A stretch of DNA of 64,000 nt from Dehalococcoidia bacterium (GCA_965249065.1 CBDFLG010000001.1:421084-485083); one strand, 5' to 3'. Counted from the stretch's first letter, positions 1,235-23,138 are shown. Program-made: numbers and translations. The notes: a model not told the origin generated them from the sequence alone.

Positions 1235-2110
1235 CTACCCCCGGTCCCCCGGCAGGCGGGTTGCCACCGCTGCCATGCCGGGCGGGGGCCAGTTGCCGGT
1301 TAGGTAGTCGTATAGGTTGGCGGCGCTTATGCGCATCACCATTGGGGCCATGCCTTCCTGCTCCACGTCCATCGGGTAGCGGTCGGTCAGCGCGGTCAGC
1401 GTGGCCGTTGCCTCCTCGCGGGTCAGGCCCCGGTCTATGGCGTCCTGCACGTAGTCCTTCCACTCGATGATGAACTCGCCCTGCTCGTCCAGGTAGTCCT
1501 TGCCGCACAGCGCGCCGTGGCCCGGAACGAAGATGTCCTCGCCCAGCTTGCGCAGCGACTCCAGAGCCGTCAGCCACAGGTCGGGGTTGGCCTCGTGGAG
1601 CCAGGTCTGCACTCCGTGGAAGATGTTGTCGCTGGTGAACACCACGCCCTCTTCCTTAATCACCACCGCCGCCTGATACAGCGTATGGCCGGGCATACTA
1701 ATCATCTCGAAGGTGTGGTCGCCGACGTGCAGGGTCATCGCGTCCTGGAAGGTGATGATTGGCGCGTTGGCCCGGTAGCCTTCCAGCAGCGCCGGCTCGT
1801 CCGGGCCGAAGGTGCCGACGCGGGCGGCGTGTTCCGCCATGTCGGTGTTCAGGATACGGGTGCGGACGCCCTCGTGGGCGATGACCGGCGCGTCGAAAAA
1901 GGCGTTGCCGGTCCAGTGGTCGCCGTGGGGTTCGGTGTTGATGATGTAGCGCAGCAGTCCGCGCTTCTCGATTTCGGCCCGCAGCCACATCGCAGTGCTG
2001 GGCTTGTGCGGGCTGTCAATCATCACGATGCCCTCGGAGGTGGTGACAAAGCCGAAGTTGCAGCCCCGCGCCTCGGTCTCGACCCATACGTTGCTGGTAA
2101 GCTGTTTCAT
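1235..2110 (-). CDS. MBL-fold metallo-hydrolase
   Basis: 291-aa ORF with a metallo-beta-lactamase His cluster (NTEPHGDHWTGN) and later PGHT and VPGHG sites. AGGGAGG lies 7 nt upstream of the ATG. Confidence 0.85.
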   Translation of the reverse strand: MKQLTSNVWVETEARGCNFGFVTTSEGIVMIDSPHKPSTAMWLRAEIEKRGLLRYIINTEPHGDHWTGNAFFDAPVIAHEGVRTRILNTDMAEHAARVGTFGPDEPALLEGYRANAPIITFQDAMTLHVGDHTFEMISMPGHTLYQAAVVIKEEGVVFTSDNIFHGVQTWLHEANPDLWLTALESLRKLGEDIFVPGHGALCGKDYLDEQGEFIIEWKDYVQDAIDRGLTREEATATLTALTDRYPMDVEQEGMAPMVMRISAANLYDYLTGNWPPPGMAAVATRLPGDRG

Positions 2111-2241
2111 AGCTGGCCTCCCTGATTAAGAGGAAGAGATTTGACCGGCGGATAAGCGTTCGCCGCCCTGCATTCTACACGGTTGACCGGCTGGGTGGGC
2201 GCGCCTATGCTGTATAACCAATTCATCGTGCTGGGGGAGCG

Positions 2242-2706
2242 TTGGACAGCCGCGACCTGGATCTTCACGGCAAGACTTGGCCCGAAGCCTTGGAAGAGTT
2301 TGTGGACGCCTACAACAAGGCCGTGCAGCCCGGCGGCCATGCTTGCCGCACGCTGCGGGTCATCCACGGCTACGGCTCCACCGGCGGCCCCGGCGTCCTG
2401 CGCACCCGTTTCCGCAAGTTCCTGGGGAAGCACGACACCCGGCTGGAATTCACGCCCGGCGAGAAGACCGACGGCAACCCCGGATACACAACGGTTACTC
2501 CGAAATACGCCCTCCCCGGCGCCGATGCCGCCTTGTCCGAGTTGGTCTGGGACTACTGCGAACAGCCGAAAACCCTAAACAAAATCGCGGGCCAGTTCCG
2601 CCGCTACGGTACGCCCCGGGTGCAGCAGGCGGTCCGCTCGCTGGTGGCGCAGCAACGGCTCCGAAAGGGGGCCAGGGCGCGCAACAGCGTGTACGAGGCG
2701 GTGTAA
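2242..2706 (+). CDS. Smr domain-containing protein
   Basis: 154-aa ORF. LDLHG...LRVIHGYGSTG matches the Smr/MutS2 C-terminal domain signature. The TTG start from the track is uncertain. Confidence 0.7.
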   Translation: MDSRDLDLHGKTWPEALEEFVDAYNKAVQPGGHACRTLRVIHGYGSTGGPGVLRTRFRKFLGKHDTRLEFTPGEKTDGNPGYTTVTPKYALPGADAALSELVWDYCEQPKTLNKIAGQFRRYGTPRVQQAVRSLVAQQRLRKGARARNSVYEAV

Positions 2707-2777
2707 CGGCTGCCATAACGGCAGGCCCACCGGGAACTCGCTGGCATAATTCACTCAACCGGGCTGGAGGACAAGCT

Positions 2778-3281
2778 ATGGGCGAAATGTTGCAGCAGGG
2801 GGGCCGATTTCCCCAATTGGAGTTGAAGTTGCTGGACGGCGGGACGCTGACTCTGCCCGGCGATGCGCCGAGCCGCTACACCGCGCTGCTGTTCTACCGG
2901 GGGCACTGGTGACCCTACTGCCAGCGGCAGTTGGCCGCGTATGAGGCAGCCAAACCGGAATTAGACGCGCTGGGCGTGACCGTCATAGCCGTCAGCACCG
3001 ACAACGAGGAGCAGGCGCAGGAAGTGAAGGGCCGCGGCTTGAGCTTCCCGGTCGCTTACGGCGCTAACAAGGCCGACGCCGACACCATCGGCGCCTGGTG
3101 GTCCGACGATCGCGGCGGCTTCGTCCAGCCTGCCGAGTTCCTGCTGGGACGCGGCGGCGTGGTGCTGGGGGCCATGTACGCCTCCGGCCCGGTGGGACGT
3201 ATGGCGTCCGACGAAGTCATCTATTCCATAACGTCCCGCGAGAACCGGCGGCGCCAAGAAGAAGGCGAAACGGCAGGATAG
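2778..3281 (+). CDS. AhpC/TSA-type peroxiredoxin-like thioredoxin-fold protein, probable selenoprotein (UGA-Sec at 2910-2912)
   Basis: ATG 2778 has GGAGG 7 nt upstream. The tail of ORF 2277..2912 and ORF 2931..3281 share a frame and are separated only by TGA. Read-through gives ALLFYRGHW-U-PYCQRQLAAYEAAKPELDALGVTVIAVSTDN, the FYRGxWCPxC motif with U in place of the first Cys. Confidence 0.7.
2918..2949 (+). promoter_or_regulatory. Candidate bacterial SECIS hairpin downstream of UGA 2910-2912
   Basis: Lower stem CUGCC (2918-2922) pairs with GGCAG (2945-2949). Upper stem GCGGC (2924-2928) pairs with GCCGC (2934-2938). Apical loop AGUUG contains GU about 17-21 nt after the UGA. Folded by eye only. 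Confidence 0.4.
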
Positions 3282-3292
3282 ATTATCCACAA

Positions 3293-3324
3293 TTTTAGGG
3301 GCGCACAGCCGTGCGCCCCTAAAA
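3293..3324. repeat. Hairpin repeat family 1 (AGGGGCGCAC-AGCC-GTGCGCCCCT), copy a
   Basis: Perfect 14-bp stem TTTTAGGGGCGCAC / GTGCGCCCCTAAAA with loop AGCC, in the gap between the Prx stop and the DinB start. The same 24-nt core recurs at 35637-35660, with a degenerate copy at 27392-27415. Confidence 0.8.
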
Positions 3325-3350
3325 GGTACTCTTGTGTACAAGGGACTCTT

Positions 3351-4184
3351 ATGAACGAAGCCAATCAGCAACTCGTAGACATGATGGAACACGTCTGGCG
3401 CTCCATCGCCACCCTCTGCAACGGCCTCACCGAAGCCCAGTGGAAGACGCCCACCGACTGCCCCGGCTGGTCGGTGCAGGACCAGATCTCGCATCTGGCA
3501 GGCTCCGAGACGGGGATCCTGGGCGACCCCGACCCCGGCCACACGCCCGCCGACCTCTCGCACACCCGCAGCGAGCAGGGACGGCACAACGAGATCGTGG
3601 TGGACTTCCGCCGCCCGTGGCCCGGCCAGCAGGTGCTTTCCGACTTCCGCGCCAAGACCGCCCGCCGGATGGAAAGCCTGCGCGCGATGTCCGACGACGA
3701 CTTTGCCGCCGAGATGCAGACCCCGGTCGGCCCCGGCAGCGTCTCCGAGTTCCTCAGCATCCGCATCATGGACGCCTGGATTCACGAGCAGGACATCCGC
3801 CGCGCCCTGAACCGCCCCGGCGAGATGGAGGGGGCGGTCGCCGCCCACGCGCTGGGCCGCGTCATCCGCGCCATGCCCTTCGTCGCCGCCCGCCGCGCCC
3901 AGGCCCCCGACGGCACGACCGTGCTGTTCGACATCTCCGGCCCTGCCGGACGCCTCATGCCCATCGGCGTCACCGTAACCTCCGACGGAAGCCGACGCGG
4001 CCGCGAGCTGGAGCAGGCCCCCGGCAGCCCCACCGTCCGCATCACCCTCGACGCCGAGACCTTCGGCTGCCTCGGCTGCGGCCGCTGGGACCCCGACGAA
4101 GTCCTGCGGTCGGGCCAGGTGTCCATCGAGGGCGACACCACCCTCGGCGAGTCCATCGTCCGCCAAATGAACATAATGCCCTGA
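3351..4184 (+). CDS. DinB-fold / maleylpyruvate-isomerase-family (mycothiol-dependent enzyme type) protein with C-terminal SCP2-like domain
   Basis: 277-aa ORF. The N-terminus HVWRSIATLCNGLTEAQWKTPTDCPGWSVQDQISHL is typical of the TIGR03083-type DinB domain. The C-terminal LRSGQVSIEGDTTLGESIV is sterol-carrier-like. Confidence 0.75.
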   Translation: MNEANQQLVDMMEHVWRSIATLCNGLTEAQWKTPTDCPGWSVQDQISHLAGSETGILGDPDPGHTPADLSHTRSEQGRHNEIVVDFRRPWPGQQVLSDFRAKTARRMESLRAMSDDDFAAEMQTPVGPGSVSEFLSIRIMDAWIHEQDIRRALNRPGEMEGAVAAHALGRVIRAMPFVAARRAQAPDGTTVLFDISGPAGRLMPIGVTVTSDGSRRGRELEQAPGSPTVRITLDAETFGCLGCGRWDPDEVLRSGQVSIEGDTTLGESIVRQMNIMP

Positions 4185-4705
4185 CGCCACCACCTTTCCG
4201 TTTACCTGTTTCGCAGGGGGCAGGCGCCGGGCGCCCCTGGGCATCGAGTGTCTGCTCTGCAAGGCAGAACCGGCCAGGCGGGCGGTCTCGGTGCGCCATT
4301 CGGAAAACCGAGATTACGCCGGCTCCGCAGTTGTTGCGGCCCTCCTCGTCACTCCCTCCTCACCCGCCGGGATGCTCTCTTGGCAGTTGCATTGCATACC
4401 GCCGAGGACGTTTCCGGTGCGGCAACTTGGAGCTGCCTCGTCCCATCCCTCTCCCACTGGATACAGAAACGCCAAAATCGGCTGAAATCCCCTGACAGAC
4501 ATATTGAGTCGATTGCAAAATTGAACAGAACGTCAGAAAGCCACCCGCCCTTGGAGCAACAGCAGCCAGCCATACCGGACCGGAACACCAACTGATAATG
4601 TACGCAAGCAACCGGTTCACCACGGAGCTCGATGTGAGGTAATCCGATAGACATGGCCAGTCAGGAACAACCAAGTTTGCTGGACAAACGCCCTGAGAGT
4701 ACAAT

Positions 4706-4753
4706 CAGCCCAAACGCAAGGAGCATCGGCAGCCTAAACGCAAGGAGCACCGG
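4706..4753 (+). repeat. 2 x 24-bp tandem direct repeat, each unit carrying an AAGGAG Shine-Dalgarno-like core, directly upstream of ATG 4759
   Basis: CAGCCCAAACGCAAGGAGCATCGG (4706-4729) and CAGCCTAAACGCAAGGAGCACCGG (4730-4753), 22/24 identical. Confidence 0.85.
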
Positions 4754-4758
4754 GTCCA

Positions 4759-5211
4759 ATGACCACCATCAACACAGTAGATGACTTCCTCATAGATTAC
4801 TATGTCCAGAACCACGTCCAAAAGTTCGCGGAAGTAATCGCCGACAACCTGGATCTGAAGTGCGTCCAAACTCTCAGTCCCAAACAACTGCTGGACATCG
4901 CGAAGAAAATGACCGGCTCCACGGGAATAGACCAGAGCCAACGAAACAGCTTTGTGCACGCCGATCTCGTTATCGAAGCGACAGCAGAGAACGGCGAAAC
5001 CGCCTACGTTACGGTCGAAGCGTCATGGACCGCAGACAACAGGGACTCCGGCAGAGCTCTGCGCAACGCCAGGTATCTCGAAAACGCGACCGGGCACCGC
5101 GCAATTGCAGCCGTAGCCAGCGTCCGTAACGATTACGAAGTGGAAGAGCTGGTCGAAAACGGACAGCTACACTGGCACAGCATCCCAGACAATGACCTGC
5201 AACCCGAGTAG
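4759..5211 (+). CDS. Hypothetical protein (150 aa)
   Basis: ATG lies 11 nt after AAGGAG. The region is AT-richer than its flanks. The segment HADLVIEA...AYVTVEASWTADNRDSGRALRNARYL faintly recalls PD-(D/E)XK-like small proteins, but I cannot assign a family. Confidence 0.55.
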   Translation: MTTINTVDDFLIDYYVQNHVQKFAEVIADNLDLKCVQTLSPKQLLDIAKKMTGSTGIDQSQRNSFVHADLVIEATAENGETAYVTVEASWTADNRDSGRALRNARYLENATGHRAIAAVASVRNDYEVEELVENGQLHWHSIPDNDLQPE

Positions 5212-5246
5212 GAAGGGATAATTCACAAACAAGCTTCAAAGGACTA

Positions 5247-5624
5247 CTAGTGGCGGTGGCCCGTTGAGTGCATTATCAGGTTGCCCTTGGCGACTTCGGT
5301 CATCACCTCCACCGCCTCGGCCAGGGTCTCGTCGTCCACTCCGAGATGCTTCACGGCATCCAGATGGAAGCGCACTCAAACGCCGCAATTGTTCATGGCG
5401 GACACGATGTAGGCAATGAGCTTCTTGGTCTTCAGGTCCAGCCTTCCGGCAACCATGGTCTGCTGGTAGTAAGCCCAGTAGGATTCCAGGTGGGCCGGGT
5501 TGTGGGCGATTAGCTGGAAGGTCTGCGGCACAAATTCCCAACCCATGCTCGCCTTGATTTCTTCGTAAATTTCCTTCACCCTGCCGGTGGCTTGCTGTTC
5601 GGTTACCAGCTCTACTCTGGCCAA
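5247..5624 (-). CDS. Carboxymuconolactone decarboxylase / AhpD-like protein, probable selenoprotein (UGA-Sec at 5376-5378)
   Basis: TTG start at 5624 with AGGAG 8 nt upstream. The track ORF 5376..5624 stops at TGA. The same frame continues 42 codons to TAG at 5247-5249. Read-through gives SAMNNC-GV-U-VRFHLDAVKHLGVDDETL, matching the AhpD/CMD CxxCxxxH motif with U at the second Cys. Confidence 0.7.
5344..5371 (-). promoter_or_regulatory. Candidate SECIS region downstream of UGA 5376-5378
   Basis: Two alternative hairpins seen by eye: GCUUC/GAAGC (5 to 28 nt after the UGA), or GGAUG-CCGUGAAG-CAUCU (15 to 32 nt after the UGA, apical loop with GU). Weak. Confidence 0.3.
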
Positions 5625-5970
5625 CGCTTCGTCTCCTTTCTTGTGCGTGTCCCGCCGGAAGCTCCCGGCTCTCTCGGTGATGGTATCACCGGAAGCAATT
5701 GGCCGCAGATGCGCCGGGGGGAACGTCCAGCGAAATTGTTTCCGATTTGTTGCCGGACGGATTGGCGAGACTGTATGATTGGATAAGACTCTTCAGGGGA
5801 ATGGCGCCTCCCGCGCTTCCTTGGAGCTTGGGCCGGGGTGGGAGCAGGGGTTGGCATTCCCCGTCTGCGCTCATCGCTTGGGCCACGAATTGGGAAACCG
5901 GCCCGCAGGGCTCGTGTCAGCGCAGGACCGTTGGAGGCGGCCTCTCTGCGGCAAGTGGAATGTGGTGTTA

Positions 5971-6912
5971 ATGCGTATCACCGGGCTAATGCGTATCGCC
6001 AGGATGAGCAACAGCCGCCTCGCCGGAGTGCGAGAATGGTACGCTGGCGCAGGATTGACGCCGGCCCTTCCGGTATGGGCGAGAGCCTGGCTGGGGGTCT
6101 GCCAACGGACTCCGGCCGCGCAATGGGCGTGGGAGCAGAGGCGTGCGCTGATCGAGGTAGCGCTCTATCTCGGGGCCTATCTGGTCTACTTGTTCACTCG
6201 CGGCCTGGTTTATGACAATCCCCGCGCCATCGGCATCGTAAACAGCGGATATGTCGCTGAGCTTCAGGAACGGCTGGGGTTCCTTTGGGAACCGGGCTGG
6301 CAGCACTGGGCAATAGAACACGTTCACGGTCTCGTCGTTTTCCTCAATTGGGCCTATATTCTCACCTACTGGCCGGTGATCCTGGCGTTGGCCGTGGTGC
6401 TGTTCCTGCGCGACCGGGGCAAGTATTACTACTTCCGGTCTGTGGTGCTGCTGGACCTAGTTGCCGCGCTCCTGATCTTTATGCTGTTTCCGGTGGCCTC
6501 GCCCTTTGCTATTCCGGGCGTGGGGCTGCTGGACACGATTCAGGCTTTCGGCCCGGCTTTCTACGGCACGGAGACAATGGCCGCCTACTACAACACGTCG
6601 GCGGCGATGCCCAGCTTGCATTTCAGTTGGACCGTGATTCTGGGGGTCTACTGCTGGCGAACGCTGCCCGGCGGCTTCAAGGCAGTTGGCCTGCTCTATC
6701 CGGCGATCACCTTCTTCACCATCACCATCACCGGAAACCATTTCATTCTTGACGCCATCGCAGGGGGCGCGCTGGCGGGCCTGTCCTTTGGCGCGATTGA
6801 GGCGTACCTGTGGCTGGGCTCAAGGCGCAGGAGCGTCAACATTTTCTTGGCCCGGCGCCCGGCGCTGTCCCGGTGGCTGGTCAGGATCAGGCGTGACTCC
6901 GCCGCCGACTGA
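5971..6912 (+). CDS. PAP2-superfamily (PAP2_3-like) integral membrane phosphatase/phosphotransferase
   Basis: C-terminal 300 aa of ORF 5779..6912 is multi-pass hydrophobic, with AMPSLHFSW and ITGNHFILDAIAG motifs. Candidate starts are ATG 5971, 5989 or 6004. The upstream part of the ORF looks non-coding. Confidence 0.65.
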   Translation: MRITGLMRIARMSNSRLAGVREWYAGAGLTPALPVWARAWLGVCQRTPAAQWAWEQRRALIEVALYLGAYLVYLFTRGLVYDNPRAIGIVNSGYVAELQERLGFLWEPGWQHWAIEHVHGLVVFLNWAYILTYWPVILALAVVLFLRDRGKYYYFRSVVLLDLVAALLIFMLFPVASPFAIPGVGLLDTIQAFGPAFYGTETMAAYYNTSAAMPSLHFSWTVILGVYCWRTLPGGFKAVGLLYPAITFFTITITGNHFILDAIAGGALAGLSFGAIEAYLWLGSRRRSVNIFLARRPALSRWLVRIRRDSAAD

Positions 6913-6940
6913 AGGATGTCGCCCCAAGCGAGGCCCGGGC

Positions 6941-8113
6941 CTACGGTGACTGGGCGTTCTCCTGCCGCCGTGTCTGCAAGTAAATTGCCCCTAGCGTCCC
7001 GACCACCGACCCGCCCGACGCCATCCAGAATACCCACTTCATAGCCACGTAATCGGCAATCAGGCCGCCGATGGTGGGGGAAACGGTGCTGCCCAGCCCC
7101 GCTCCTACCGACATCAGCGCGAAGGCCGCCGCCGAGAAGCGCACTGGCACGTAGTCTCCCGACGAGGCCGCGCATATCGTGTAGGCCGCCCTCAGCGTCA
7201 CGCCCATCAGGGCCGAGGTTATCAGGAACGTCACAAACCCCGGCGCAACGGCCAGCAGCGCGAAGGCGACCCCCTGCACCACGAAGGAGTAGGCGAAGGC
7301 CTGCCCCCGTCCAAACTTGTCGGACATCCAGCCCCAACCCACCCCGCTGCCGATGCTAAGTGTGCCGATGAGGACGACCAACTGCCCGGCGGTAGCCAGC
7401 GATATGCCGTTTTCCTGGGTGAGATAAAGGCCGAAAAAGGTGGTGAACAGGTTCTGAGACCACCCCGAAGTGAAGGCGAGACAGGCGATGAGCCAAACGG
7501 CGGGATGCTTGAACGCCTCGATGGGCCAGGCGCTGCGGGCCGTCCCCGCCTGCCGCTCGGGTTCCAGGGGTTCGGCAGGCCGCTCCCGGACAAACAGCAG
7601 CGACACCACCCCTACCACCAATACCATACCGCCGAACAACTGCCAGCTATGGCGCCATCCATCATCCCAGTTTGACCCGGTCAGAATCGGCACCGCGACC
7701 CCGGCCACTATGAAGGCGATACTGCCGCCCGATGCCGCCAGCCCCGCCGCCAGCCCCCGGTCTCGCATCATGAACCAAGCGGACAGCAAACCCATCATCG
7801 GGGTCAACGCCGCGCCGCTGCCAATGCCCATCAGCACCCCGGCCCCTAAGGCAGTGCCGTAGTTCTGGGCAAACCCCAGCAGCACCATGCTGACGCCGGT
7901 GATCAATGTGCCGATAGCGGTGATGGAACGGCTGCCGTAGCGCGGGGCCAGTGTGCCGGAGGACAGCGCGCCCGCCATGCGAGTCGCCGCCGTGATGGTA
8001 ATCAGCAGCCCCACCTCAGTGTGCGAAAGGTGGAGCGCTGCCTCCATCGAGGGCAGGGTCAGGCTGTAACCGAACTGAACAAACCCGGTAGCCAGGTTGA
8101 CCAAAAAGGCCAC
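6941..8113 (-). CDS. MFS transporter
   Basis: 390-aa ORF with about 12 hydrophobic segments and a central loop (FVRERPAEPLEPERQ). GTG start; an in-frame stop lies 18 codons upstream. Confidence 0.85.
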   Translation of the reverse strand: MAFLVNLATGFVQFGYSLTLPSMEAALHLSHTEVGLLITITAATRMAGALSSGTLAPRYGSRSITAIGTLITGVSMVLLGFAQNYGTALGAGVLMGIGSGAALTPMMGLLSAWFMMRDRGLAAGLAASGGSIAFIVAGVAVPILTGSNWDDGWRHSWQLFGGMVLVVGVVSLLFVRERPAEPLEPERQAGTARSAWPIEAFKHPAVWLIACLAFTSGWSQNLFTTFFGLYLTQENGISLATAGQLVVLIGTLSIGSGVGWGWMSDKFGRGQAFAYSFVVQGVAFALLAVAPGFVTFLITSALMGVTLRAAYTICAASSGDYVPVRFSAAAFALMSVGAGLGSTVSPTIGGLIADYVAMKWVFWMASGGSVVGTLGAIYLQTRRQENAQSP

Positions 8114-8320
8114 CAGCAGCGTGACTCCGGAATAAGACCGGAGCCAGTAAACGGCAAGGCTGTTGACTAGAATAAGAGGCTCCCGGATTCAGATTTGCCG
8201 CTATATTACAATCAGTAACTAATCATACCAACCACCCGTCTCCGGTGAGAAAACGGACGGCTCTGCATCCCGGTCTCGCTCTTTACCAACCGCCTGCGAA
8301 TGGCAAAGACGGATGAGCCC

Positions 8321-8410
8321 TTAGCGCAGCGGGCGGAAGAAGTTACGGACGACGTCCTCCACCAACAGCTCCGGCTCCTCTAGGACGGCGAAGTGACCGC
8401 CGCTGGGCAT
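8321..8410 (-). pseudogene. C-terminal remnant (29 codons) of an epoxide-hydrolase-type alpha/beta hydrolase
   Basis: Own translation MPSGGHFAVLEEPELLVEDVVRNFFRPLR* matches the conserved GGHFAAxEePeL...FF tail carrying the catalytic His. No matching N-terminal body lies upstream. Confidence 0.55.
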
Positions 8411-8528
8411 TCTAGCCAAACTTGTGGCTGCGTGCAAAAGTTGGCGCCAGTACGCCAAGCGCCTCGCTCGCTGCGGCGAGTGCTTGAGCCAAGGTTTGCG
8501 TTCCTGCTCTCGCGAATGGGGTTTCTAA

Positions 8529-8860
8529 CCCTCTCGTCTGGCAGACATTATTGATTGCAAGAAAGTGGATATAGCCACCGGGGAAGTGGCCGGAGAGCGC
8601 TGGTATCTGCTGACCAGCCTGAGTCCCCGGCAGTGTGGTCCCCGAGAGCTGCTCCGGCTGTTCCGCAACCAGTGGAGCATTGAGAACAGCCAGCATCGTA
8701 TGAAAGACCGCAACTGGGATGAAGATGTCCAAAAGCTGCGCCTTCCGCCCAGCGCAGACCATCGCCCGCCTCTGCGGACGTGCTTTCTGACTTTGCAATC
8801 GTCTTGGTGCCTGGGTCTGCCGCCCTTTCCGATAGTCCGGTACGCGCCTATAATCCCCAT
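8529..8860 (+). pseudogene. 3' remnant of an IS4/ISAs1-type DDE transposase gene
   Basis: Translation ...VAGERWYLLTSLSPRQCGPRELLRLFRNQWSIENSQHRMKDRNWDEDVQKLR resembles the C-terminal W.IEN.LH...D...ED block. There is no N-terminal DDE region and no terminal inverted repeats. The tail is probably frameshifted. Confidence 0.5.
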
Positions 8861-8890
8861 CGACCGTAAATACGCGCAGGAGGCCGGGTT

Positions 8891-9712
8891 ATGGCTACGG
8901 CGAAAGTAAATGGCGCGGAGCTATATTACGAAGAGGCCGGGAGCGGCCCTCCGATTATTCTGTCGGCGGGCGGGCTGCAGGGGGTAGCCAGCAGTTACGG
9001 GCCGGTGATTGACGCCCTGTCGCAGGAGCACCGGGTGGTGGTCTACGACCGCAGGTTTGGCGGCCAGTCCCGCAGTCCCTTGGTGGTGCAGACTTGGGAC
9101 ATGGTGTGCGACGATGTGTTCGGGTTGATGGACGCTTTGGGAATCGAGCAGAGCTATCTGGGCGGAGGGTCGTTTGGCGCGGCCATTTCCTTCGGCTGTG
9201 CTTCCCGTCGCCCCGAACGGGTGAGAGCCATTTTCCCGTCGAACATCGCGGGCGGGGTCATCTGCGACGGCTATCTAACGTCCAAGCTGTTCAAGAGCAT
9301 GGAGCTAGCCGCGGCTGAGGGCATTTCGGCGGTGGTGGGCGCTTTCGACGCCGACGACCGCTTCGCCCCCTTCAGCCCGGAGATTGCCCAGACCGACGAC
9401 GGCTACCGCAAAGACCTGGAAGCGATGGACACCGAGGAGTTCATCCAGGTGATGCGAGACAGCATCTATGCCCTCTTCGGCGGCCCGTTCCCAACGCTGG
9501 GCAGCACCGAGAAGATGCTGAAAGGCGTCAGCGTACCGGCGATGATTATGCCGGGATGCAACGACGTGCATCCGAGGGCAGTGGCCGAGATGGCCCACCG
9601 TCTCGTCCCCAACTGCCAGTGGGGCGAGTGCAAACCCCACTCCGACGAGCCGGAAAAGTACGCCAAGCGGGTGCTGCAATTCCTGTCGGAAGTGGAGGCA
9701 AACGGCGCTTAA
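8891..9712 (+). CDS. Alpha/beta hydrolase
   Basis: 273-aa ORF with nucleophile elbow GGGSFGA. The N-terminal GSGPPIILSAGG and the length fit the fold. AGGAGG lies upstream. Confidence 0.8.
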   Translation: MATAKVNGAELYYEEAGSGPPIILSAGGLQGVASSYGPVIDALSQEHRVVVYDRRFGGQSRSPLVVQTWDMVCDDVFGLMDALGIEQSYLGGGSFGAAISFGCASRRPERVRAIFPSNIAGGVICDGYLTSKLFKSMELAAAEGISAVVGAFDADDRFAPFSPEIAQTDDGYRKDLEAMDTEEFIQVMRDSIYALFGGPFPTLGSTEKMLKGVSVPAMIMPGCNDVHPRAVAEMAHRLVPNCQWGECKPHSDEPEKYAKRVLQFLSEVEANGA

Positions 9713-10035
9713 CGACCGAGTTCGCTCGGTAAGTTACCAGACGGTGCTGGCACGAGGGGCTCGATTACGCTAACGTCGGTCGAGTCCCGGGCCCTCTCCA
9801 GGTCATAGAGCTTTTGCAGGTTTAGCCAGAAGTCCGGCGTCATTCGCAACGCCTTCCCGATGCGAAGCGCAGTGTCTGCTGAGATAGAGCGGTTGGCGTG
9901 AACGATCTCGTTGATGCGCCGTGGGGAAACTCCTATGGCTGTCGCTAGTCGATATTGGCTGATTTCCAATTCGCCCAGAATTTCAGCTAGGTGTTCCCCG
10001 GGATGGATGGGTGCGTTCTCTTCCAAGGCAGCCAC
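9709..10035 (-). CDS. higA: HigA-family antitoxin (XRE-type HTH)
   Basis: IHPGEHLAEILGELEISQYRLATAIGVSPRRINEIVHANRSISADTALRIGKAL is the HigA/VapI signature. The track start at 10062 overlaps higB. GTG 10035, just after the higB stop, is the more likely start. Confidence 0.85.
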   Translation of the reverse strand: MAALEENAPIHPGEHLAEILGELEISQYRLATAIGVSPRRINEIVHANRSISADTALRIGKALRMTPDFWLNLQKLYDLERARDSTDVSVIEPLVPAPSGNLPSELGR

Positions 10036-10036
10036 C

Positions 10037-10318
10037 TCACGAATGATAGTCCACCACTTCAATTTCCTTGGCGCCTTCGTCCGTCCAAGTGAAGCAAACT
10101 CTCCACTGGTCGTTGACTCGAATGCTGTATTGGCCTGCCCGGTTGCCTCTCAAAACTTCCAACCGGTGTGAAGGAGGCACAAGCAGATCCAACAGGTCAT
10201 CGGCGGCCACAACTCGCTGGAGCCTCATGCGAGTCCGCGTCCTGACGTCTGGCGGAAGCCAGCGGGGAAACCGCCCCAAGAAAGCAAGCTCGGTTTCCCT
10301 GTCGGCAAAGAGTCTCAA
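10037..10318 (-). CDS. higB: HigB-type toxin (RelE/ParE superfamily, plasmid maintenance system killer)
   Basis: 93 aa: FADRETELAFLG...LDLLVPPSHRLEVLRGNRAGQYSIRVNDQWRVCFTW...VVDYH. TTG start; an in-frame TAG lies 3 codons upstream. Confidence 0.85.
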   Translation of the reverse strand: MRLFADRETELAFLGRFPRWLPPDVRTRTRMRLQRVVAADDLLDLLVPPSHRLEVLRGNRAGQYSIRVNDQWRVCFTWTDEGAKEIEVVDYHS

Positions 10319-10336
10319 ACTATGCTAACACACGGC

Positions 10337-10361
10337 GTTAATAACACAAAGCGTTATTAAC
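10337..10361 (-). promoter_or_regulatory. Inverted repeat (putative HigA operator) overlapping promoter-like hexamers upstream of higB
   Basis: GTTAATAAC (10337-10345) and GTTATTAAC (10353-10361) are exact reverse complements separated by 7 nt. On the minus strand a TAGCAT -10-like box lies 3 nt before the TTG start. Confidence 0.45.
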
Positions 10362-10386
10362 TGGCCGGCCTATCTCCGCCCCGCTC

Positions 10387-11718
10387 TTACACCGTCACCC
10401 CGGTGAAGTTGAAGCTGCCCAGCTTTAGGGCTGGGACGCGGGTGGCGAAGCCGACCTCGTTCAGCACCAGCTTGGCCTCGTCGCCCACGCCTTCCACGCT
10501 GGCCAGCGCGTCGACGTAGGACTGGGTGAAGCGCAGGTCCTTGACCGGGTGGCGAAGCTCGCCGTCCTCGATTAGAAACGTGCCGTCGCGGGTCATGCCG
10601 GTCATCACGCAGCCCTTGTTGTGAGACAGGCGGGTGTAGAAGAAGCGGGTGATGTACAGCCCCCGTTCCGTAGACGCGATAAGCTGCTCCACCGTTTGGT
10701 CGCCGGGCCGCATGAACAGGTTGGAGGCTATGGGCGGGCCGGTGAAGTAAGCCTGATGGCCGGTGGAGGCCGTGCCGTCTTGGGCTGCGGTGTAGGTGTT
10801 ATGCACCGGAGCGTTGACCACGCCGTTCTCGATCAACTCCACCCGGCGGCGCGGCACTCCCTCGGTGTCGAAAGGCAGCGGCCAGCCGTGCAGCGACGCG
10901 CCGTCATCCCAGATGGACACCGAATCGCTCATCGCCCGGGTGTCTTGGAGTCCGTTCATCCAGCTTCGTCCTTCCTGCACCGCCTGCGCTCCCATGCCGT
11001 AGAGCGACAGCGCCTCAAGGATGTCGTCAACGGCGTAGTGGTCCAGCACTACCGTATATTCGCCGGGCGTTATCGGCTGTGGATTGCGGCCCTGTACCGC
11101 CTTGTCCACCGCCTCGCGGGCTAGGGCTGGGTAGTCGATTTCGTCCAGCCGCCACGAGCCGCCCTTGGCCCAGCCCGCCGAGGTATCGCTGCGGGTGGTG
11201 ATGATCAGCCCGGCGAAGGTTCCGGCGTGGTAGGCGCGGACACCCCGGCTGCTGACCACCGCGATTTCCTGTACCCCGGTGCGGTAGGCCCCGGCGGTGT
11301 CCAGTCCTTCGGCGGCGCCTTGTCGGCAGACCTCGCCGACCATCTGCGCCCGCAGTTGGGGCGAGCAGGCGGCGGCCGATTCGTCCCAGCTCGCCACTCG
11401 CGGCGCGGGCTGCGGCTCCGGCAGGCCGGGGAACGCAGGGTCTTCGGGCATCAGCAGGGCGTTGCGCTGTGCCGCCTCCATCGCCCGGCCAATACCGCCG
11501 TCCGACAGATCGTTGGTGGTGGCCCGTCCCAGCCGTTTCCCCTCCACGGCGCGGATGTTCAGCGTGACATTGCTGTGGGAAACATTCTGATGGATGGCGT
11601 TGCCCGCGAACCGGGTCAACCCCAGGTCCTGGCTGCTCAGGTATACGTCGGTCTGCTGCGCCGCCGAAAAAGACAGCGCGCGTTCCAGCAGGGTCAGGGC
11701 AGCGTCTTCGCCAATCAT
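10387..11718 (-). CDS. pmbA: TldD/PmbA-family metallopeptidase subunit (PmbA/TldE-like)
   Basis: C-terminal 443 aa of ORF 10387..11868. ATG 11718 overlaps the tldD stop (ATGA). It has family-typical length and sequence but lacks HExxxH. Confidence 0.8.
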   Translation of the reverse strand: MIGEDAALTLLERALSFSAAQQTDVYLSSQDLGLTRFAGNAIHQNVSHSNVTLNIRAVEGKRLGRATTNDLSDGGIGRAMEAAQRNALLMPEDPAFPGLPEPQPAPRVASWDESAAACSPQLRAQMVGEVCRQGAAEGLDTAGAYRTGVQEIAVVSSRGVRAYHAGTFAGLIITTRSDTSAGWAKGGSWRLDEIDYPALAREAVDKAVQGRNPQPITPGEYTVVLDHYAVDDILEALSLYGMGAQAVQEGRSWMNGLQDTRAMSDSVSIWDDGASLHGWPLPFDTEGVPRRRVELIENGVVNAPVHNTYTAAQDGTASTGHQAYFTGPPIASNLFMRPGDQTVEQLIASTERGLYITRFFYTRLSHNKGCVMTGMTRDGTFLIEDGELRHPVKDLRFTQSYVDALASVEGVGDEAKLVLNEVGFATRVPALKLGSFNFTGVTV

Positions 11719-13160
11719 CGCATCACCCCCACGCGGACGTTGCGGAAGCGGGCCGGGGCCGCGCCGTGGCCGGTGTGGCCGAGCTGGCCCGGCTGCCCCT
11801 TGCCGCAATTGGGCGTTCCCCACATGGTCCAGTGATTCGCGTTGCACACGGCGTCGCAGGAGTTCCAAAACTCCGGCGTGATGCCGGTATAGGTGCAGTT
11901 GCGCAGCAGCCGCCCCAGCTTGCCCTTCTTGATTTCGTAGCCAACCTCGGTGCCGAACTGAAAGTTATAGCGCCGGTCGTCTATGGACCAAGAGCGGTTC
12001 ATATCCACCAGAATGCCGTCGTCGGTGTCAGCAATCAGGTCGTCCAACTCCCACTCGCCCGGCTCAAGGCTGACGTTGGTCATGCGAATCAGCGGCAGCC
12101 GGTTCCACGACGCCGCCCGCACCGTGCCGTTGGACTCCAGCCCCAAGGTGGCGGCGGTCTCCCGCGACATCAGGTAGCCGACGAAGCGGCCCGCCTCGAC
12201 CACGGGCGCCGACTGCGCCGGCACTCCCTCATCGTCCCACCCGAAGGAGCCCAGCCCCGGCAACCGGACGCTGTCGGCGGTGATGTTCACCTGCTCGGAG
12301 CCGTAGCGGAAATTACGCAGTTTCTCGGTGGTCAGGAACGACGTGCCGGCGTAGGCCGCCTCGGAACCCAGCACCCGGTCCAGTTCGATGGCGTGTCCGC
12401 AGGACTCGTGTATCTGGAGGCCCACCTGCGAGCCGCCAATAATCAGCGTGGTGGTAATGTCGCTGGGGCAGCGGTCGGCGGTGAGCAGGGCCACGGCCTC
12501 GCTGGCCACCCGTTCGGCGTTGCCCGCCAGGTCGAAGTCGCGCACGTACTCCCACCCGCTGCATCCCTGCTGACGGCCCATGGACTGCGGGTAGGAGCGG
12601 CGCTGCACCTCGCCATTACCCACGGCAGTCGCTTGGATACCCCCGCCGGCCTCGTAGATGGTCTGCTCCACATCCGCGCCCTCGCTGTTGGCGAAGGTCT
12701 TGCGCTCGCGGATGAATATCAAGTTGGCCGTGCGCGTCGAGATGCCCTCCACCCGCCCCATCTGCTCGTCGGCCTCCAGCAGCAGGGCCAGCTTTTCCTC
12801 GGGCGCGACGCCGAAGGGGTCAACTTCCACCGGCGTAGCGTAGACGCCCCGGCTGGTCACTGGCTGCCCTAGGTTGACCGGCGGCCCTCCCGACGTTGCC
12901 GAGGCGCGCCCGATTTCCACGGCCAGCGCGGCGGCCCGGTCAACGGCCTCCGGCGTCATCGTGTTGGTCGAGGCGAAACCCCAGGCCCCGTCCACCACCA
13001 CGCGCACGCCGATGCCCAGCGATTCGTCGGAGCTAATCACGTCCGCCACGCCGCTCCGCACCGAATAGCGCTCCTGCGCCGTCTCCACCATACGCGCGTC
13101 GGCGTAAGTCGCGCCCCGCGCCGCGGCAGTGTCCAGCGCGCGGGCAATCAGACTGTCCAT
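11715..13160 (-). CDS. tldD: TldD-family zinc metallopeptidase
   Basis: 481-aa ORF with an HESCGHAIELD (HExxxH) motif, translationally coupled to the pmbA-like gene. Confidence 0.85.
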   Translation of the reverse strand: MDSLIARALDTAAARGATYADARMVETAQERYSVRSGVADVISSDESLGIGVRVVVDGAWGFASTNTMTPEAVDRAAALAVEIGRASATSGGPPVNLGQPVTSRGVYATPVEVDPFGVAPEEKLALLLEADEQMGRVEGISTRTANLIFIRERKTFANSEGADVEQTIYEAGGGIQATAVGNGEVQRRSYPQSMGRQQGCSGWEYVRDFDLAGNAERVASEAVALLTADRCPSDITTTLIIGGSQVGLQIHESCGHAIELDRVLGSEAAYAGTSFLTTEKLRNFRYGSEQVNITADSVRLPGLGSFGWDDEGVPAQSAPVVEAGRFVGYLMSRETAATLGLESNGTVRAASWNRLPLIRMTNVSLEPGEWELDDLIADTDDGILVDMNRSWSIDDRRYNFQFGTEVGYEIKKGKLGRLLRNCTYTGITPEFWNSCDAVCNANHWTMWGTPNCGKGQPGQLGHTGHGAAPARFRNVRVGVMR

Positions 13161-15945: not shown

Positions 15946-17526
15946 TTACCCCCGCAGCCGGTACCGCTGCACCTTGCCCGTTGCGGTCTTGGGCAAGTCT
16001 TCGACGAAGTTGACCCAGCGGGGATACTTGTAGCGGGCCAGGCCGCTCTTGCAGTGTTCCAGCAGTTCGTCGGCCAGTATGTCGCTGGCGTCTTGGGCGT
16101 CTTTCAGCACCACGAAGGCTTCCGGCTTGACCAGTTCATCGGCGTCGGCGCGGCCTACTACCGCGGCTTCCAGCACTCGCGGATGCTCGATTAGCCGCCC
16201 CTCGATTTCCACCGGAGAGCACCAGATGCCGCCGACCTTGAGCATATCGTCGCTGCGTCCGCAGTAGACGTAATAGCCGTCGGCGTCCTGGTAGTAGGTG
16301 TCGCCGGTGTTCAGCCAGCCGTCCACCATCGTCTCGGCGGTGCGCTCAGGGTTGTTCCAGTAATGCAAGGCGGTGGAGTCGCCGCGAATGAACAGCCGCC
16401 CGGTTTCTCCCGCCTCGACCGGCTGGCCTTCTTCGTCCACAATCCGGGCCCCGTATCCCGGCACCGGGCGGCCGCTGCTGCCAGGGCGGTAGTCGCCGGC
16501 GGTGTTGGAAATGAAGATGTGAAGCGCCTCGGTGGAGCCGATGCCGTCCAGAATCAGCGTGCCGGTGCGCTCCCGCCACCGCCGGAAGATGTCGGCGGGC
16601 AGTGCTTCCCCCGCCGACACGCAGCAGCGCACCGAGGACAAATCCCGGGGCGATTCGTCCAGCGCCCGCAGTTGGGCCGCATACAGCGTCGGCACCCCGA
16701 AGTACAGTGTCGGACGGTGTTGCTCGATAACGTCGAAGGTCATTTCCGGCGTGGGCCGCTGCCCGCTCAGCACCGCCGTCGCACCCGCCCACAGCGGGAA
16801 GGTCATAGCGTTGCCCAGCCCGTAGGCGAAGAACAGCTTGGCCGCCGAAAAGCATACGTCGTCCTCCTCCACCCCTAGTGTGCCGACGGCGTAATAGACG
16901 CAGGTGGTCACGATGTCGCGGTGCCGGTGTACCGCGCCTTTGGGCCGCCCGGTGGAGCCGGACGAATACAGCCAGAAGCATTCCGAGTCCGCCGAGGCGT
17001 CCGCCGGGGCCAGGATTGCCGACGTTTCTTCCATCATGTCGGCTACCGAGCTGGGGCCCTCGGTGCAGAGTATGAAGTTGGGCTGATGCGACGCTCCGGC
17101 AAGGGCCTGCGCCACCTCGCCCCGGTATTCCGGCGAATAGACCAGCCCGGCGCATCCTGAATCCTCGATGATGTGCCGGTAATCCCCGGAGCGCAGCAGC
17201 GTGTTGAGGGGAACCGGAATCAGCCCGGCCTTTATCGCGCCCCAGAACAGATAGAAGAACTCGGGGCAGTCCTTGACCACCATCAGAACCCGCCCGCCGG
17301 ACTCAGCGGCCAGCGTCCGCAGCAGGTTGCCGCAGCGGTTCACCCGCTCCGCCAACTGCGCATAGCTGACGGTGTCGCCGGTATCGTCGAAGACGATGGC
17401 CGTCTTGCCGCCCCGGCCCTCAGCCAAATGCCGGTCAATGAACGGCACGGCCACGTTGAAAACGTCCGGGTAGCAAATGCTGGACGGGCTGGCAATGGCG
17501 TCGATAACGACATCGTGCTGCGGCAT
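15946..17526 (-). CDS. bclA: Benzoate-CoA ligase family protein (AMP-forming)
   Basis: 526 aa with YSSGSTGRPKGAVHRHRD, GEALP, YRTGD-like NTGDTY and a C-terminal TATGKVQRYRLR. It lies next to boxB and boxC. Confidence 0.8.
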   Translation of the reverse strand: MPQHDVVIDAIASPSSICYPDVFNVAVPFIDRHLAEGRGGKTAIVFDDTGDTVSYAQLAERVNRCGNLLRTLAAESGGRVLMVVKDCPEFFYLFWGAIKAGLIPVPLNTLLRSGDYRHIIEDSGCAGLVYSPEYRGEVAQALAGASHQPNFILCTEGPSSVADMMEETSAILAPADASADSECFWLYSSGSTGRPKGAVHRHRDIVTTCVYYAVGTLGVEEDDVCFSAAKLFFAYGLGNAMTFPLWAGATAVLSGQRPTPEMTFDVIEQHRPTLYFGVPTLYAAQLRALDESPRDLSSVRCCVSAGEALPADIFRRWRERTGTLILDGIGSTEALHIFISNTAGDYRPGSSGRPVPGYGARIVDEEGQPVEAGETGRLFIRGDSTALHYWNNPERTAETMVDGWLNTGDTYYQDADGYYVYCGRSDDMLKVGGIWCSPVEIEGRLIEHPRVLEAAVVGRADADELVKPEAFVVLKDAQDASDILADELLEHCKSGLARYKYPRWVNFVEDLPKTATGKVQRYRLRG

Positions 17527-17547
17527 AACGCCTCCAAATCTCCCCGC

Positions 17548-17619
17548 TTAGGCTACACTTTAACAGAGGAAAATCAAGAGTTGCTACTGGAGGCATGGAA
17601 TGCCCGATTCAGCCCTTAA
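17548..17619 (+). pseudogene. 3' remnant of a DUF4160 gene (usual partner of DUF2442)
   Basis: The tail of ORF 17173..17619 reads ...LTEENQELLLEAWNARFSP*, resembling the DUF4160 C-terminal H.eEL...W motif. It overlaps the DUF2442 start by 20 nt, as intact pairs do. The rest of that ORF is antisense to bclA. Confidence 0.35.
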
Positions 17620-17965
17620 GCGTATGAACATTCCAGAAGCGGAAGACATTACTGTTACCGAAGACACCTTAACCGCTGAACTTTCTGATGGCCGGACTAT
17701 CGCTGTACCTCTATCCTGGTATCCCCGGCTGATTCATGCAACGCCGGAGGAGCGCAATAACTGGTGGCTTATTGGCACAGGTCAAGGCATACACTGGCCC
17801 GACCTGGATGAGGACATCAGCGTGGAGGGAATGCTGGCGGGCTGGCCCTCTCGTGAGAGTCAAAAGTCCCTTAAGCAGTGGCTCGAGGCCAAGAAGGAAG
17901 GACGCGGGCTGACGCTGTACGAGCTAATGGCCTACGAAAAGGAGCAGCAGCAGAGCGGGCGGTAA
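17600..17965 (+). CDS. DUF2442 domain-containing protein
   Basis: 121 aa: VTEDTLTAELSDGRTIAVPLSWYPRLIHATPEERNNWWLIGTGQGIHWPDLDEDISVEGMLAG. Confidence 0.8.
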   Translation: MPDSALKRMNIPEAEDITVTEDTLTAELSDGRTIAVPLSWYPRLIHATPEERNNWWLIGTGQGIHWPDLDEDISVEGMLAGWPSRESQKSLKQWLEAKKEGRGLTLYELMAYEKEQQQSGR

Positions 17966-17992
17966 CCGCACAAGCCGCCAACTCCTGTACCT

Positions 17993-19417
17993 TCAGTTGA
18001 AGCGGACGTACTCGAAGTCCCACGGCTTGCCGTCTACGCCGCGTACCGGGGGCGCAATCCAGCCGGCGATTTTGCCCGGCTCGATGACCCGGCGCATCAG
18101 CGAGTCCACGAAGGCCATATCCTCCGGGGTGGGCAGCCAGCGGGATACGTTGGCCTGCCATTCCGCTTCGCCGGTTACCCGCCCGTCCGGCGAAACCCGC
18201 AGACCGGCGGCGTTGCCGATGCGCCGGTTGAAGAAGCGATGCGGCAGTTCCAGCCGGAAATCCACGCCCAGCGTTTCCAGCGCCCGGTTCCAGCGGTCGA
18301 GGCCGCGCTGGCAGTCCTTGATGTAGTCGTCGCGCAGCCGTTCGTTGACCACGCTCAGGGCCGGCAACTGCTCCACGCTGATTCGTCCGTCTTGCACCGT
18401 ATGCACCGGCCACAGATCCGCCGTCAGGCGGTGGTCGCCGTCGAGCCGCGACTCCAGGTAGCGCCCCTTCAGCCCGGCGGTGAAGTAGTTGGCGGCGTTG
18501 GTCGAGGCCTCCTGCCCAAACAGGTCCACCGACACGCTGTAATGAAGGTTGACGTACTTCTGGATTGTTGGCAGGTCTATGACGCCCGCCGCCCGCAGGC
18601 GCTCCGGGTCGTCGGTTCCCAGCTCCCGCATCACCTCGCCGGTGCGCTGCGCCACCCGCATGACGCCGGTCTCGCCCACGAACATATGATGGGCCTCTTC
18701 GGTGAGCATGAAGCGGCAGGTGCGGGCCAGCGGGTCGAACCCTGACTCGGCCAGCGCCGCCAACTGGTACTTGCCGTCGCGGTCGGTGAAGTAGGTGAAC
18801 ATCAGGTAGGACAGCCAGTTGGGTGTCTGCTCATTGAACGCGCCCAAGATGCGCGGCCGGTCGGCGTCGCCGGAGTGCCGGTCCAGCATCGCCTCGGCTT
18901 CCTCTCGTCCGTCGCGCCCGAAATAGGCGTGGAGCAGGTAGACCATCGCCCACAGGTGCCGCCCTTCCTCCACGTTTATCTGGAACAGGTTGCGCAGGTC
19001 ATAGAGCGACGGGCAGGTAAGCCCCAGCCGCCGCTGCTGCTCCACCGACGCCGGTTCCGTGTCGCCCTGCGTGACGATGAGCCGCCGCAATGGTGCGCGA
19101 TACTCGCCCGGCACCTCCTGCCATACCGGCTGGCCCTGGTGGTCGCCGAAGGGTATGACCCGGTCGGGTTCAGGTTTCGCCAGAAAAATACCCCAACGGT
19201 ATTCCGGCATCTTGACGAAGCCGAAGTTGGCCCAACCGTCCGACTCGACACTGATTGCCGTTCGTAGATAAACGTCGAAGTCAGTGGAGCCGTCCGGCCC
19301 CATCTCGTCCCACCATTTCATATAGTTGGGCTGCCACGACTCCAAGGCGCGTTGCAGCCGCCGGTTGTCCGACAGCCCCACGTTGTTGGGAATGCGGTCA
19401 GTGTAGTTGATGCTCAT
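17993..19417 (-). CDS. boxB: Benzoyl-CoA 2,3-epoxidase, oxygenase subunit BoxB
   Basis: MSINYTDRIPNNVGLSDNRRLQRALESWQPNYMKWWDEMGP...VTQGDTEPASVEQQRRLGLTCPSLYDLRNLFQINVEEGRHLWAMVYLLHAYFGRDGREE...FEYVRFN is near-colinear with BoxB as I remember it. ATG 19417 follows GAGGGG. Confidence 0.9.
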   Translation of the reverse strand: MSINYTDRIPNNVGLSDNRRLQRALESWQPNYMKWWDEMGPDGSTDFDVYLRTAISVESDGWANFGFVKMPEYRWGIFLAKPEPDRVIPFGDHQGQPVWQEVPGEYRAPLRRLIVTQGDTEPASVEQQRRLGLTCPSLYDLRNLFQINVEEGRHLWAMVYLLHAYFGRDGREEAEAMLDRHSGDADRPRILGAFNEQTPNWLSYLMFTYFTDRDGKYQLAALAESGFDPLARTCRFMLTEEAHHMFVGETGVMRVAQRTGEVMRELGTDDPERLRAAGVIDLPTIQKYVNLHYSVSVDLFGQEASTNAANYFTAGLKGRYLESRLDGDHRLTADLWPVHTVQDGRISVEQLPALSVVNERLRDDYIKDCQRGLDRWNRALETLGVDFRLELPHRFFNRRIGNAAGLRVSPDGRVTGEAEWQANVSRWLPTPEDMAFVDSLMRRVIEPGKIAGWIAPPVRGVDGKPWDFEYVRFN

Positions 19418-19420
19418 AAT

Positions 19421-19458: not shown

Positions 19459-19467
19459 AACTGACGA

Positions 19468-22333: not shown

Positions 22334-22350
22334 CGAGTTGCGCCCGCCAT

Positions 22351-23121: not shown

Positions 23122-23138
23122 GGCTCCCCCACTTCGTT

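Follow-up and report, generated by a model that had tools for sequence, protein, structure and literature searches.

Within a 64,000-nucleotide stretch of the genome of a Dehalococcoidia bacterium (GCA_965249065.1, CBDFLG010000001.1:421084-485083; hereafter the window), a gene for a peroxiredoxin (Prx)-like protein and a gene for an AhpD-like protein lie close together, each interrupted by an in-frame TGA at an active-site cysteine position and with a DinB-family gene between them. Does this arrangement encode one clustered, doubly selenocysteine (Sec)-dependent peroxide relay, as an initial annotation of the locus had proposed, or have two unrelated selenoprotein genes come to lie side by side? 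We consider the second answer probable. On this reading, the two genes, here called Prx-U and AhpD-U, are separate members of known selenoprotein families that became adjacent through a rearrangement in a lineage of SAR202-type Dehalococcoidia, and the conserved pair is that of Prx-U and the DinB gene. All elements described in the initial annotation are present at this locus (Table 1), and its assignments to the Prx fold, the AhpD/CMD family, and the DinB/MDMPI family were borne out by Pfam and NCBIfam matches.

Both reading frames are open apart from a single TGA each. In domain searches with cysteine substituted at the TGA, Pfam AhpC-TSA (PF00578) matched residues 8–129 of Prx-U (67 bits, cut-off 26) and CMD (PF02627) matched residues 43–119 of AhpD-U (52 bits, cut-off 23), so that both domains span their TGA. 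We traced homology through each TGA by tblastn and read the codon found at this site in related genomes. For Prx-U, 80 genomic loci were read out of 267 Prx matches, from metagenome-assembled genomes of Dehalococcoidia, SAR202, and Chloroflexota; the codon is TGA in all 80 orthologous loci, and the alignments run from residue 1 to about residue 165 at 61–94% identity. For AhpD-U, the codon was read in 44 loci and is TGA in 43 of them, the exception being a homolog (L113, 53% identical) that has TGC within a CGLC motif; here the alignments cover residues 1–125. Identity in the alignments through the TGAs of both genes taken together ranges from 53 to 94%. In the 42 residues past the AhpD-U TGA, the protein is strongly conserved and its codons vary synonymously. 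More distant homologs place a cysteine at the interrupted position: full-length Prx-like proteins that are 50–64% identical contain HWCPYC or TWCPYC, the first cysteine of which aligns with U45 (P0007, P0010, P0031, and others), and the best Protein Data Bank (PDB) match of AhpD-U, the “AhpD core” structure 2ouw, aligns CSYC with CGVU, with cysteine also found in 6k40.

Each UGA is followed by a candidate bacterial selenocysteine insertion sequence (bSECIS). A 2026 review (PMC13188914) describes such elements as having a loop of 3–9 nt with a G in its first two positions, a stem of at least 4 bp, a distance of 16–37 nt from the UGA, and a minimum free energy of at most −7.5 kcal/mol, and both hairpins agree with this description. 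The Prx-U hairpin has a 5-bp stem and the loop AGUUG (−9.6 kcal/mol for the upper hairpin, −15.1 kcal/mol when extended with the lower stem), and the AhpD-U hairpin comprises a 5-bp upper stem, a lower stem, and the loop CGUGAA (−16.4 kcal/mol extended, −6.2 kcal/mol for the upper part alone). RNAalifold returned both as consensus structures. The alignment cells are paired in 96.6% of cases at the Prx-U hairpin, compared to 14–53% in controls with slid partner columns, and in 98.3% at the AhpD-U hairpin, compared to 31–47% in its controls. In both genes, the hairpin codons are also extreme minima of synonymous entropy. Codons 50–53 of Prx-U are CGG in 80/81 sequences, CAG in 81/81, only TTG or TTA, and GCC in 78/79, which gives a normalized synonymous entropy of 0.086 (next-lowest window 0.61; median 0.65). 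Codons 89–93 of AhpD-U read GAT GCC GTG AAG CAT in every one of the 29 Sec-form sequences of our codon-level alignment, for which the entropy is 0 (median 0.65); the Cys-form L113 has no such hairpin. We regard this synonymous-site signal as decisive sequence evidence for the hairpins and for Sec decoding. Given the conservation of the TGA (80/80 and 43/44 loci), coding conservation on both sides of it, cysteine in homologs, and a hairpin conserved at synonymous sites, both UGAs are established as selenocysteine codons as far as sequence analysis reaches, and the replacement of a cysteine codon by UGA that had been proposed for both genes is real.

Prx-U is a member of the Prx-like 1 selenoprotein family (pfam00578 with UxxC). 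Prx-like thiol:disulfide oxidoreductase selenoproteins were described by Zhang, Fomenko and Gladyshev in 2005 (PMC1088965), and the Global Ocean Sampling (GOS) study of Zhang and Gladyshev in 2008 (PMC2398784) counted 225 sequences of Prx-like 1. Prx-U shares with this family the AhpC/TSA domain and Prx fold, a thioredoxin-like UxxC where Sec-peroxiredoxins have TxxU, an origin in marine bacteria, and a bSECIS close behind the UGA. It differs in belonging to a SAR202/Dehalococcoidia clade with a fixed signature of its own (WUPYC...QP...YASGPVGRM) and in having a DinB gene directly downstream in about three quarters of loci. The structure was modeled on the Cys ortholog P0010; its prediction has a predicted local distance difference test (pLDDT) score of 91, and its top Foldseek matches are Bcp4, Prx6, and AhpC2 (template modeling scores 0.75–0.82). 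The fold is thus that of a peroxiredoxin, but the active site is not: the sequence R41-G-H-W-U45-P-Y-C48 departs from the peroxidatic motif PxxxT/SxxC, and in alignment with peroxiredoxin 5xbs, R41 falls on the conserved Pro, U45 on the Thr, and C48 on the peroxidatic Cys. The catalytic Arg of 5xbs aligns with the invariant Gln117-Pro118 of Prx-U, in one weak pairwise alignment. The best PDB sequence matches are instead ResA and StoA, whose W-C-x-x-C aligns with W-U-P-Y-C (E ~2e-4). These matches are very weak, however, and in contrast to ResA, StoA, and TlpA, Prx-U has a fold closer to peroxiredoxins and neither a membrane anchor nor a signal peptide; as it has no hydrophobic N-terminal segment, it is likely cytoplasmic. 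With UxxC substituting for PxxxTxxC and Gln for the catalytic Arg, the active site predicted from the sequence is unlike that of a peroxiredoxin, and the label “peroxiredoxin” given to the protein by the initial annotation overstates the case.

AhpD-U belongs to the AhpD-like 2 family (pfam02627, CxxU). It scores above the cut-off for the AhpD core domain (TIGR00778, 37.2 bits, cut-off 27.8) and below that for the AhpD family model (TIGR00777, 25.7 bits, cut-off 191.95). Like other AhpD-like 2 proteins, it has a single CMD/AhpD core domain, a CxxU motif with His at +4, and a small SECIS loop that contains GU. The catalytic motif C-x-x-C-x-x-x-H defined for AhpD (PMC3141380) is present, Sec standing where the second Cys would be. 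Two features set AhpD-U apart from the family: it is without a conserved Prx partner, and the proton-relay Glu, which lies 12 residues ahead of the first Cys (PMC3141380), is replaced by Lys68 in 29/29 Sec forms (codon 68; window 5421–5423, minus strand). This Glu is kept in the Cys-form L113 (L113:17-427) and in 2ouw, and its replacement may represent a Sec-linked relaxation of the relay. Prx-like UxxC (pfam00578) and AhpD-like CxxU (pfam02627) selenoproteins are both listed in PMC1088965 and PMC2398784, and the two families have thus been known since 2005. As a separate observation, the AhpD homolog of L102 has a second in-frame TGA at codon 50, in place of an invariant Trp (SY-U-AHY), which is probably a sequencing error or the mark of a pseudogene. 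On one related chromosome, two genes of the UGSC family, a known selenoprotein family, lie 1.4–2 kb downstream of AhpD-U (L119:11694-12251).

We then asked whether the two selenoprotein genes belong together, by comparing gene order within ±10 kb of each of the 80 Prx-U loci and in the neighborhoods of 45 AhpD-U loci. AhpD-U was found near Prx-U in 0/80 loci, and Prx-U or DinB was found near AhpD-U in 0/45. Where both genes are on one contig, they are 0.32 Mb (CBDBPP010000004), 0.42 Mb (OZ252223), 1.48 Mb (OZ244112), 1.60 Mb (OZ243924), and 1.71 Mb (OZ250156) apart. Block boundaries determined by blastn fit this picture: homology to the Prx-U loci of relatives extends from window position 1245 to 4185–4188, ending at the DinB stop codon, and homology to their AhpD-U loci resumes at 5247, the AhpD-U stop, and continues to about 8410. 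The segment between these limits has a GC content of 51–56%, compared to 60–74% in its flanks. Genes that flank AhpD-U on this side in relatives (a cupin-like gene of 110 aa, an esterase, SpoU, ispD/ispF, and cysS) are missing next to AhpD-U in the window, and the closest AhpD homolog (L131, 91% identical) has no Prx or DinB gene nearby and lacks the junction. The absence of linkage in relatives, together with the synteny break, indicates that the adjacency is a lineage-specific rearrangement rather than a conserved cluster. The Prx-like gene is part of one conserved block (metallo-beta-lactamase-fold gene, Smr, Prx-U, DinB) and the AhpD-like gene of another (PAP2, AhpD-U, and the cupin-like gene through ispDF and cysS), and the window contains the junction of both, with about 1 kb of foreign-looking DNA as filler. 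The same junction occurs in a public contig of this organism (ERZ25766727:ctg362357, 4.30 Mb), which is identical to the window over 2515–12184, and the junction is therefore real.

Some further observations concern these blocks. In relatives, the cupin-like gene is convergent to AhpD-U (L121:10561-10893, L136:5375-5707, and equivalents). The window and the public contig (L132) differ by 11 single-nucleotide polymorphisms and a 17-nt indel (2498–2514, within the Smr gene), all inside 1173–2514, and no Smr gene is called on that contig. The 150-aa open reading frame (ORF) in the non-syntenic segment had no match in Pfam, NCBIfam, PHROGs, or PADLOC. Two relatives (L016:3896-4243, L019:3473-3820) have homologs 41–42% identical to it at a distance of about 6 kb from Prx-U, and the ORF thus represents a real but unannotated gene family.

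The gene that does accompany Prx-U encodes an MDMPI_N/DinB protein, which matches TIGR03083 with 139 bits (cut-off 50). In 59/80 loci, it lies downstream of Prx-U in the same orientation, mostly after a gap of 34–270 nt and with DinB identities of 52–83%. At the level of gene neighborhoods, the co-occurrence in relatives expected by the initial annotation therefore holds for Prx-U with DinB, but not for AhpD-U with either. We compared the linked DinB orthologs with representatives of the wider family drawn from a library of 1.84 billion proteins (122 representatives, 123 for the count of His and Asp residues). H48, D141, and H145 are invariant in 59/59 linked orthologs and present in 122/123 representatives; by analogy with MDMPI, we infer that they are the metal ligands. 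Four cysteines are conserved in the linked orthologs (C23, C37, C240, and C243), and the C240-x-x-C243 pair, found in 57/59 of them, occurs in 2/122 representatives. The protein thus resembles the mycothiol-dependent maleylpyruvate isomerase family in scoring above the TIGR03083 cut-off and in its invariant His/Asp/His, and differs from it in the C-terminal CxxC of its subfamily and in being encoded downstream of a selenoprotein. A PDB sequence search with the DinB protein found no relative. No mention of the Prx-U/DinB pairing was found in the searchable literature, and a built-in selenoprotein partner is an arrangement not described for DinB-fold enzymes. The position of a redoxin-type selenoprotein next to a CxxC enzyme suggests a selenol/thiol exchange couple.

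Each UGA is decoded as selenocysteine with the aid of the small hairpin just downstream, and the features of the proteins are consistent with the following model. Prx-U would be a cytoplasmic Prx-fold oxidoreductase with a thioredoxin-type selenol/thiol pair (U45, C48), and could act as a disulfide reductase or a glutathione peroxidase-like peroxidase. It would work together with the DinB-fold metalloenzyme whose gene follows immediately downstream, C240-x-x-C243 of the latter being the likely site of selenenylsulfide/disulfide exchange. AhpD-U would act independently, as an AhpD-type hydroperoxide/disulfide reductase in which Sec takes the place of the C-terminal Cys in the CxxC motif. Both selenoprotein genes are ordinary, whereas the conserved pair of Prx-U and a CxxC-containing DinB protein is a modest new lead. 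If true, the pair would connect the use of selenium with DinB-fold thiol enzymes, which are poorly understood. The SAR202-type lineage is known for oxidizing recalcitrant organic matter.

Cys-form relatives of Prx-U were seen in three loci, none of which has a DinB gene. In one such region, a second candidate selenoprotein redoxin (L128:7181-7912), with FAWASW-U-ACREQ and called in pieces of 41 + 174 aa, is located two genes downstream of the Cys-form gene. In another (L129:4769-6504), the Cys-form homolog begins 22 nt after a gene for a glutaredoxin and pyridine-nucleotide-disulfide oxidoreductase, fragmented in this 4x assembly, whose product could serve the Cys forms as reductant.

Several observations run counter to the interpretation given above, in one part or another. 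When single sequences downstream of each UGA were folded, the energies were no better than those of shuffled sequences, and the case for the SECIS elements therefore stands on the comparative evidence; as the stems are almost invariant, genuine covariation comes down to a single pair (a change from G-C to U-A in 15 sequences). None of selA, selB, selC, or selD was seen in the window, that is, in the 64 kb of the genome that were read, where tRNA-Pro is the sole tRNA. An NCBIfam scan of ten large ORFs in the window likewise found no selA, selB, or selD, and returned box/paa aromatic-CoA genes, an amidase, TldD/PmbA, and similar genes. The 21/80 Prx-U loci without an adjoining DinB gene are heterogeneous, with no alternative conserved partner apparent. 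A redox coupling of Prx-U and DinB is something we infer from gene order and the conserved CxxC only, and a single-sequence AlphaFold model of DinB was discarded (pLDDT 41). With respect to linkage of the two Sec families, L113 and L133 both have a Cys-form AhpD-like gene (53% identical) placed 37 nt upstream of a Prx-like gene that contains WCLYC, and in one GOS read, a Prx-like 1 selenoprotein gene is the neighbor of an AhpD-like 2 selenoprotein gene (PMC2398784).

How far do such points favor other explanations? That one or both UGAs are true stops, leaving the genes truncated, split, or inactivated as pseudogenes, is extremely improbable. Public gene calls do suggest this, as the initial annotation had anticipated: on the public contig of this organism, Prx-U is called as 44 + 116 aa and AhpD-U as 82 aa. 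Nearly all close Prx-like homologs in databases have 113–116 aa, corresponding to the piece after the TGA, and nearly all AhpD-like homologs have 82 aa, the piece before it. These recurring sizes indicate that gene callers break both genes at an identical point across hundreds of genomes. The lack of Sec machinery in the window would also agree with true stops. Against this, termination would remove the active-site half of each domain; beyond the TGA, the reading frame is kept and the protein remains under selection across 80 and 43 loci (53–94% identity); the TGA always falls at the redox Cys column; and at the distance of a SECIS, there is a conserved hairpin in which synonymous change is suppressed. 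We likewise see next to no chance that UGA has been reassigned, as it is in genetic codes 4 and 25, to an amino acid such as Trp or Gly, so that the residue would be other than Sec. Full-length Joint Genome Institute calls of some close homologs (P0002, P0003, P0005) show Trp at the Sec position (HWWPYC), but the most likely reason is that the caller chose a genetic code with UGA = Trp on short contigs. Moreover, the DinB gene itself stops at a TGA (4182–4184), exactly where homology to relatives ends, homologs have Cys rather than Trp at the site, and a reassigned codon would have no need for a site-specific hairpin. With both UGAs read as Sec codons, the fragmentary calls mean that protein catalogs lack, for an abundant marine and sponge-associated clade, the half of each of the two redox enzymes that holds the active site.

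The remaining alternative is the relay itself, in which Prx-U, DinB, and AhpD-U would form one selenium-dependent peroxide-reducing system, operating in trans in most genomes and clustered here, with AhpD-U re-reducing Prx-U as mycobacterial AhpD does AhpC. We consider this unlikely. The idea draws on the AhpC/AhpD paradigm (PMC3141380), on the adjacency of the genes in the window, on the presence of both in at least five related assemblies, and on the pairings in L113, L133, and the GOS read; the 2026 review cites the last of these as possibly functional and a hint of a common process (PMC13188914). The idea is not new, and the novelty claimed for it does not hold, given that both families are published and co-location of Prx-like and AhpD-like genes has been reported (PMC2398784, PMC13188914). 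As for the evidence from gene order, presence in the same genome carries little weight because both genes are widespread in the clade. A search from L113 for Cys-form relatives of the AhpD subfamily found three proteins, all of one lineage, so that the operon in L113 and L133 counts as one independent case, and its Prx-like partner in L113 is of a secreted or lipoprotein type, with no more than 38% identity over 77 aa. A doubly Sec-dependent relay encoded in a cluster finds no counterpart in any of the 80 and 45 neighborhoods, and the genes are 0.3–1.7 Mb apart on the five contigs. Co-transcription is contradicted in the window by the opposite, convergent strands of Prx-U and AhpD-U and by the 1.06 kb of non-syntenic, lower-GC DNA that separates them. 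Nothing convincing was found as an intrinsic terminator or promoter between the genes. Finally, the comparison with Mycobacterium tuberculosis extends to the presence of a Prx-fold protein and an AhpD-fold CxxC-type protein in the same genome. Unlike AhpC and AhpD, both proteins use Sec, and their genes are not adjacent in relatives; Prx-U lacks the peroxidatic PxxxTxxC with its Thr and the Arg, which argues against an AhpC-type peroxidase, and AhpD-U, scoring below the TIGR00777 cut-off, has no Prx gene in its conserved neighborhood. The case is a caution against deriving function from the gene order of a single genome. A narrower proposal, somewhat less doubtful than the relay though still tentative, is that Prx-U and the CxxC-containing DinB protein form a dedicated selenol/thiol couple in SAR202-type Dehalococcoidia, in which Prx-U would serve as built-in reductant or thiol-transfer partner of the DinB-fold metalloenzyme and which AhpD-U might feed in trans. 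We favor the reading in which two separate selenoprotein genes have been brought together by rearrangement.

Table 1. Positions of the genes, codons, and RNA and DNA elements discussed, numbered from the first nucleotide of the window.
Feature	Position	Strand	Remarks
Metallo-beta-lactamase-fold gene	1235-2110	-	Conserved upstream neighbor of Prx-U
Smr-domain gene	2242-2706	+	Conserved upstream neighbor of Prx-U
Prx-like (AhpC/TSA-fold) selenoprotein gene (Prx-U)	2778-3281	+	167 codons; active site W-U-P-Y-C
Sec-UGA of Prx-U, codon 45	2910-2912	+	Context FYRGHW-U-PYCQR
bSECIS candidate of Prx-U	2918-2949	+	Upper hairpin 2924-2938, GCGGC-AGUUG-GCCGC; loop starts 16 nt past UGA
Lower stem of Prx-U bSECIS candidate	2918-2922/2945-2949	+	Formed in this genome
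Repetitive extragenic palindrome (REP)-like perfect palindrome	3296-3321		Prx/DinB spacer; not in conserved unit
DinB/MDMPI-family (TIGR03083) gene	3351-4184	+	SCP2-like C-terminal domain; conserved downstream partner of Prx-U
Synteny break	4189-5246		1,058 bp specific to this genome among those sampled; matches neither block
Orphan 150-aa ORF	4759-5211	+	Inside non-syntenic segment
AhpD-like (CMD-domain) selenoprotein gene (AhpD-U)	5624-5247	-	125 codons; TTG start; C80-G-V-U83-V-R-F-H87
Sec-UGA of AhpD-U, codon 83	5378-5376	-	Context MNNC-GV-U-VRFH
bSECIS candidate of AhpD-U	5335-5369	-	Upper hairpin 5360-5345, GAUGC-CGUGAA-GCAUC; loop starts 20 nt past UGA
PAP2_3 phosphatase-family gene	5971-6912	+	Divergent from AhpD-U; in AhpD-U syntenic block of close relatives

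A scan of the whole window for in-frame TGAs at Cys-type motifs yielded 219 candidates in this GC-rich DNA and was too noisy to be used. The palindrome in the 69-nt spacer between Prx-U and DinB has the form (T/C)AGGGGCGCAC-AGCC-GTGCGCCCCT(A/G) and is dispersed: a second copy lies at 35635–35660 of the window, and copies occur at other positions in L003, L008, L009, L013, L017, and L021. Its presence in this spacer is particular to this genome. Elsewhere, the window contains an aerobic aromatic-CoA catabolism cluster (15946–24880) with a benzoate-CoA ligase, BoxB, BoxC, and a PaaK-like ligase, followed by genes for an F420/LLM oxidoreductase (26470–27468) and a GMC oxidoreductase (29138–30781).

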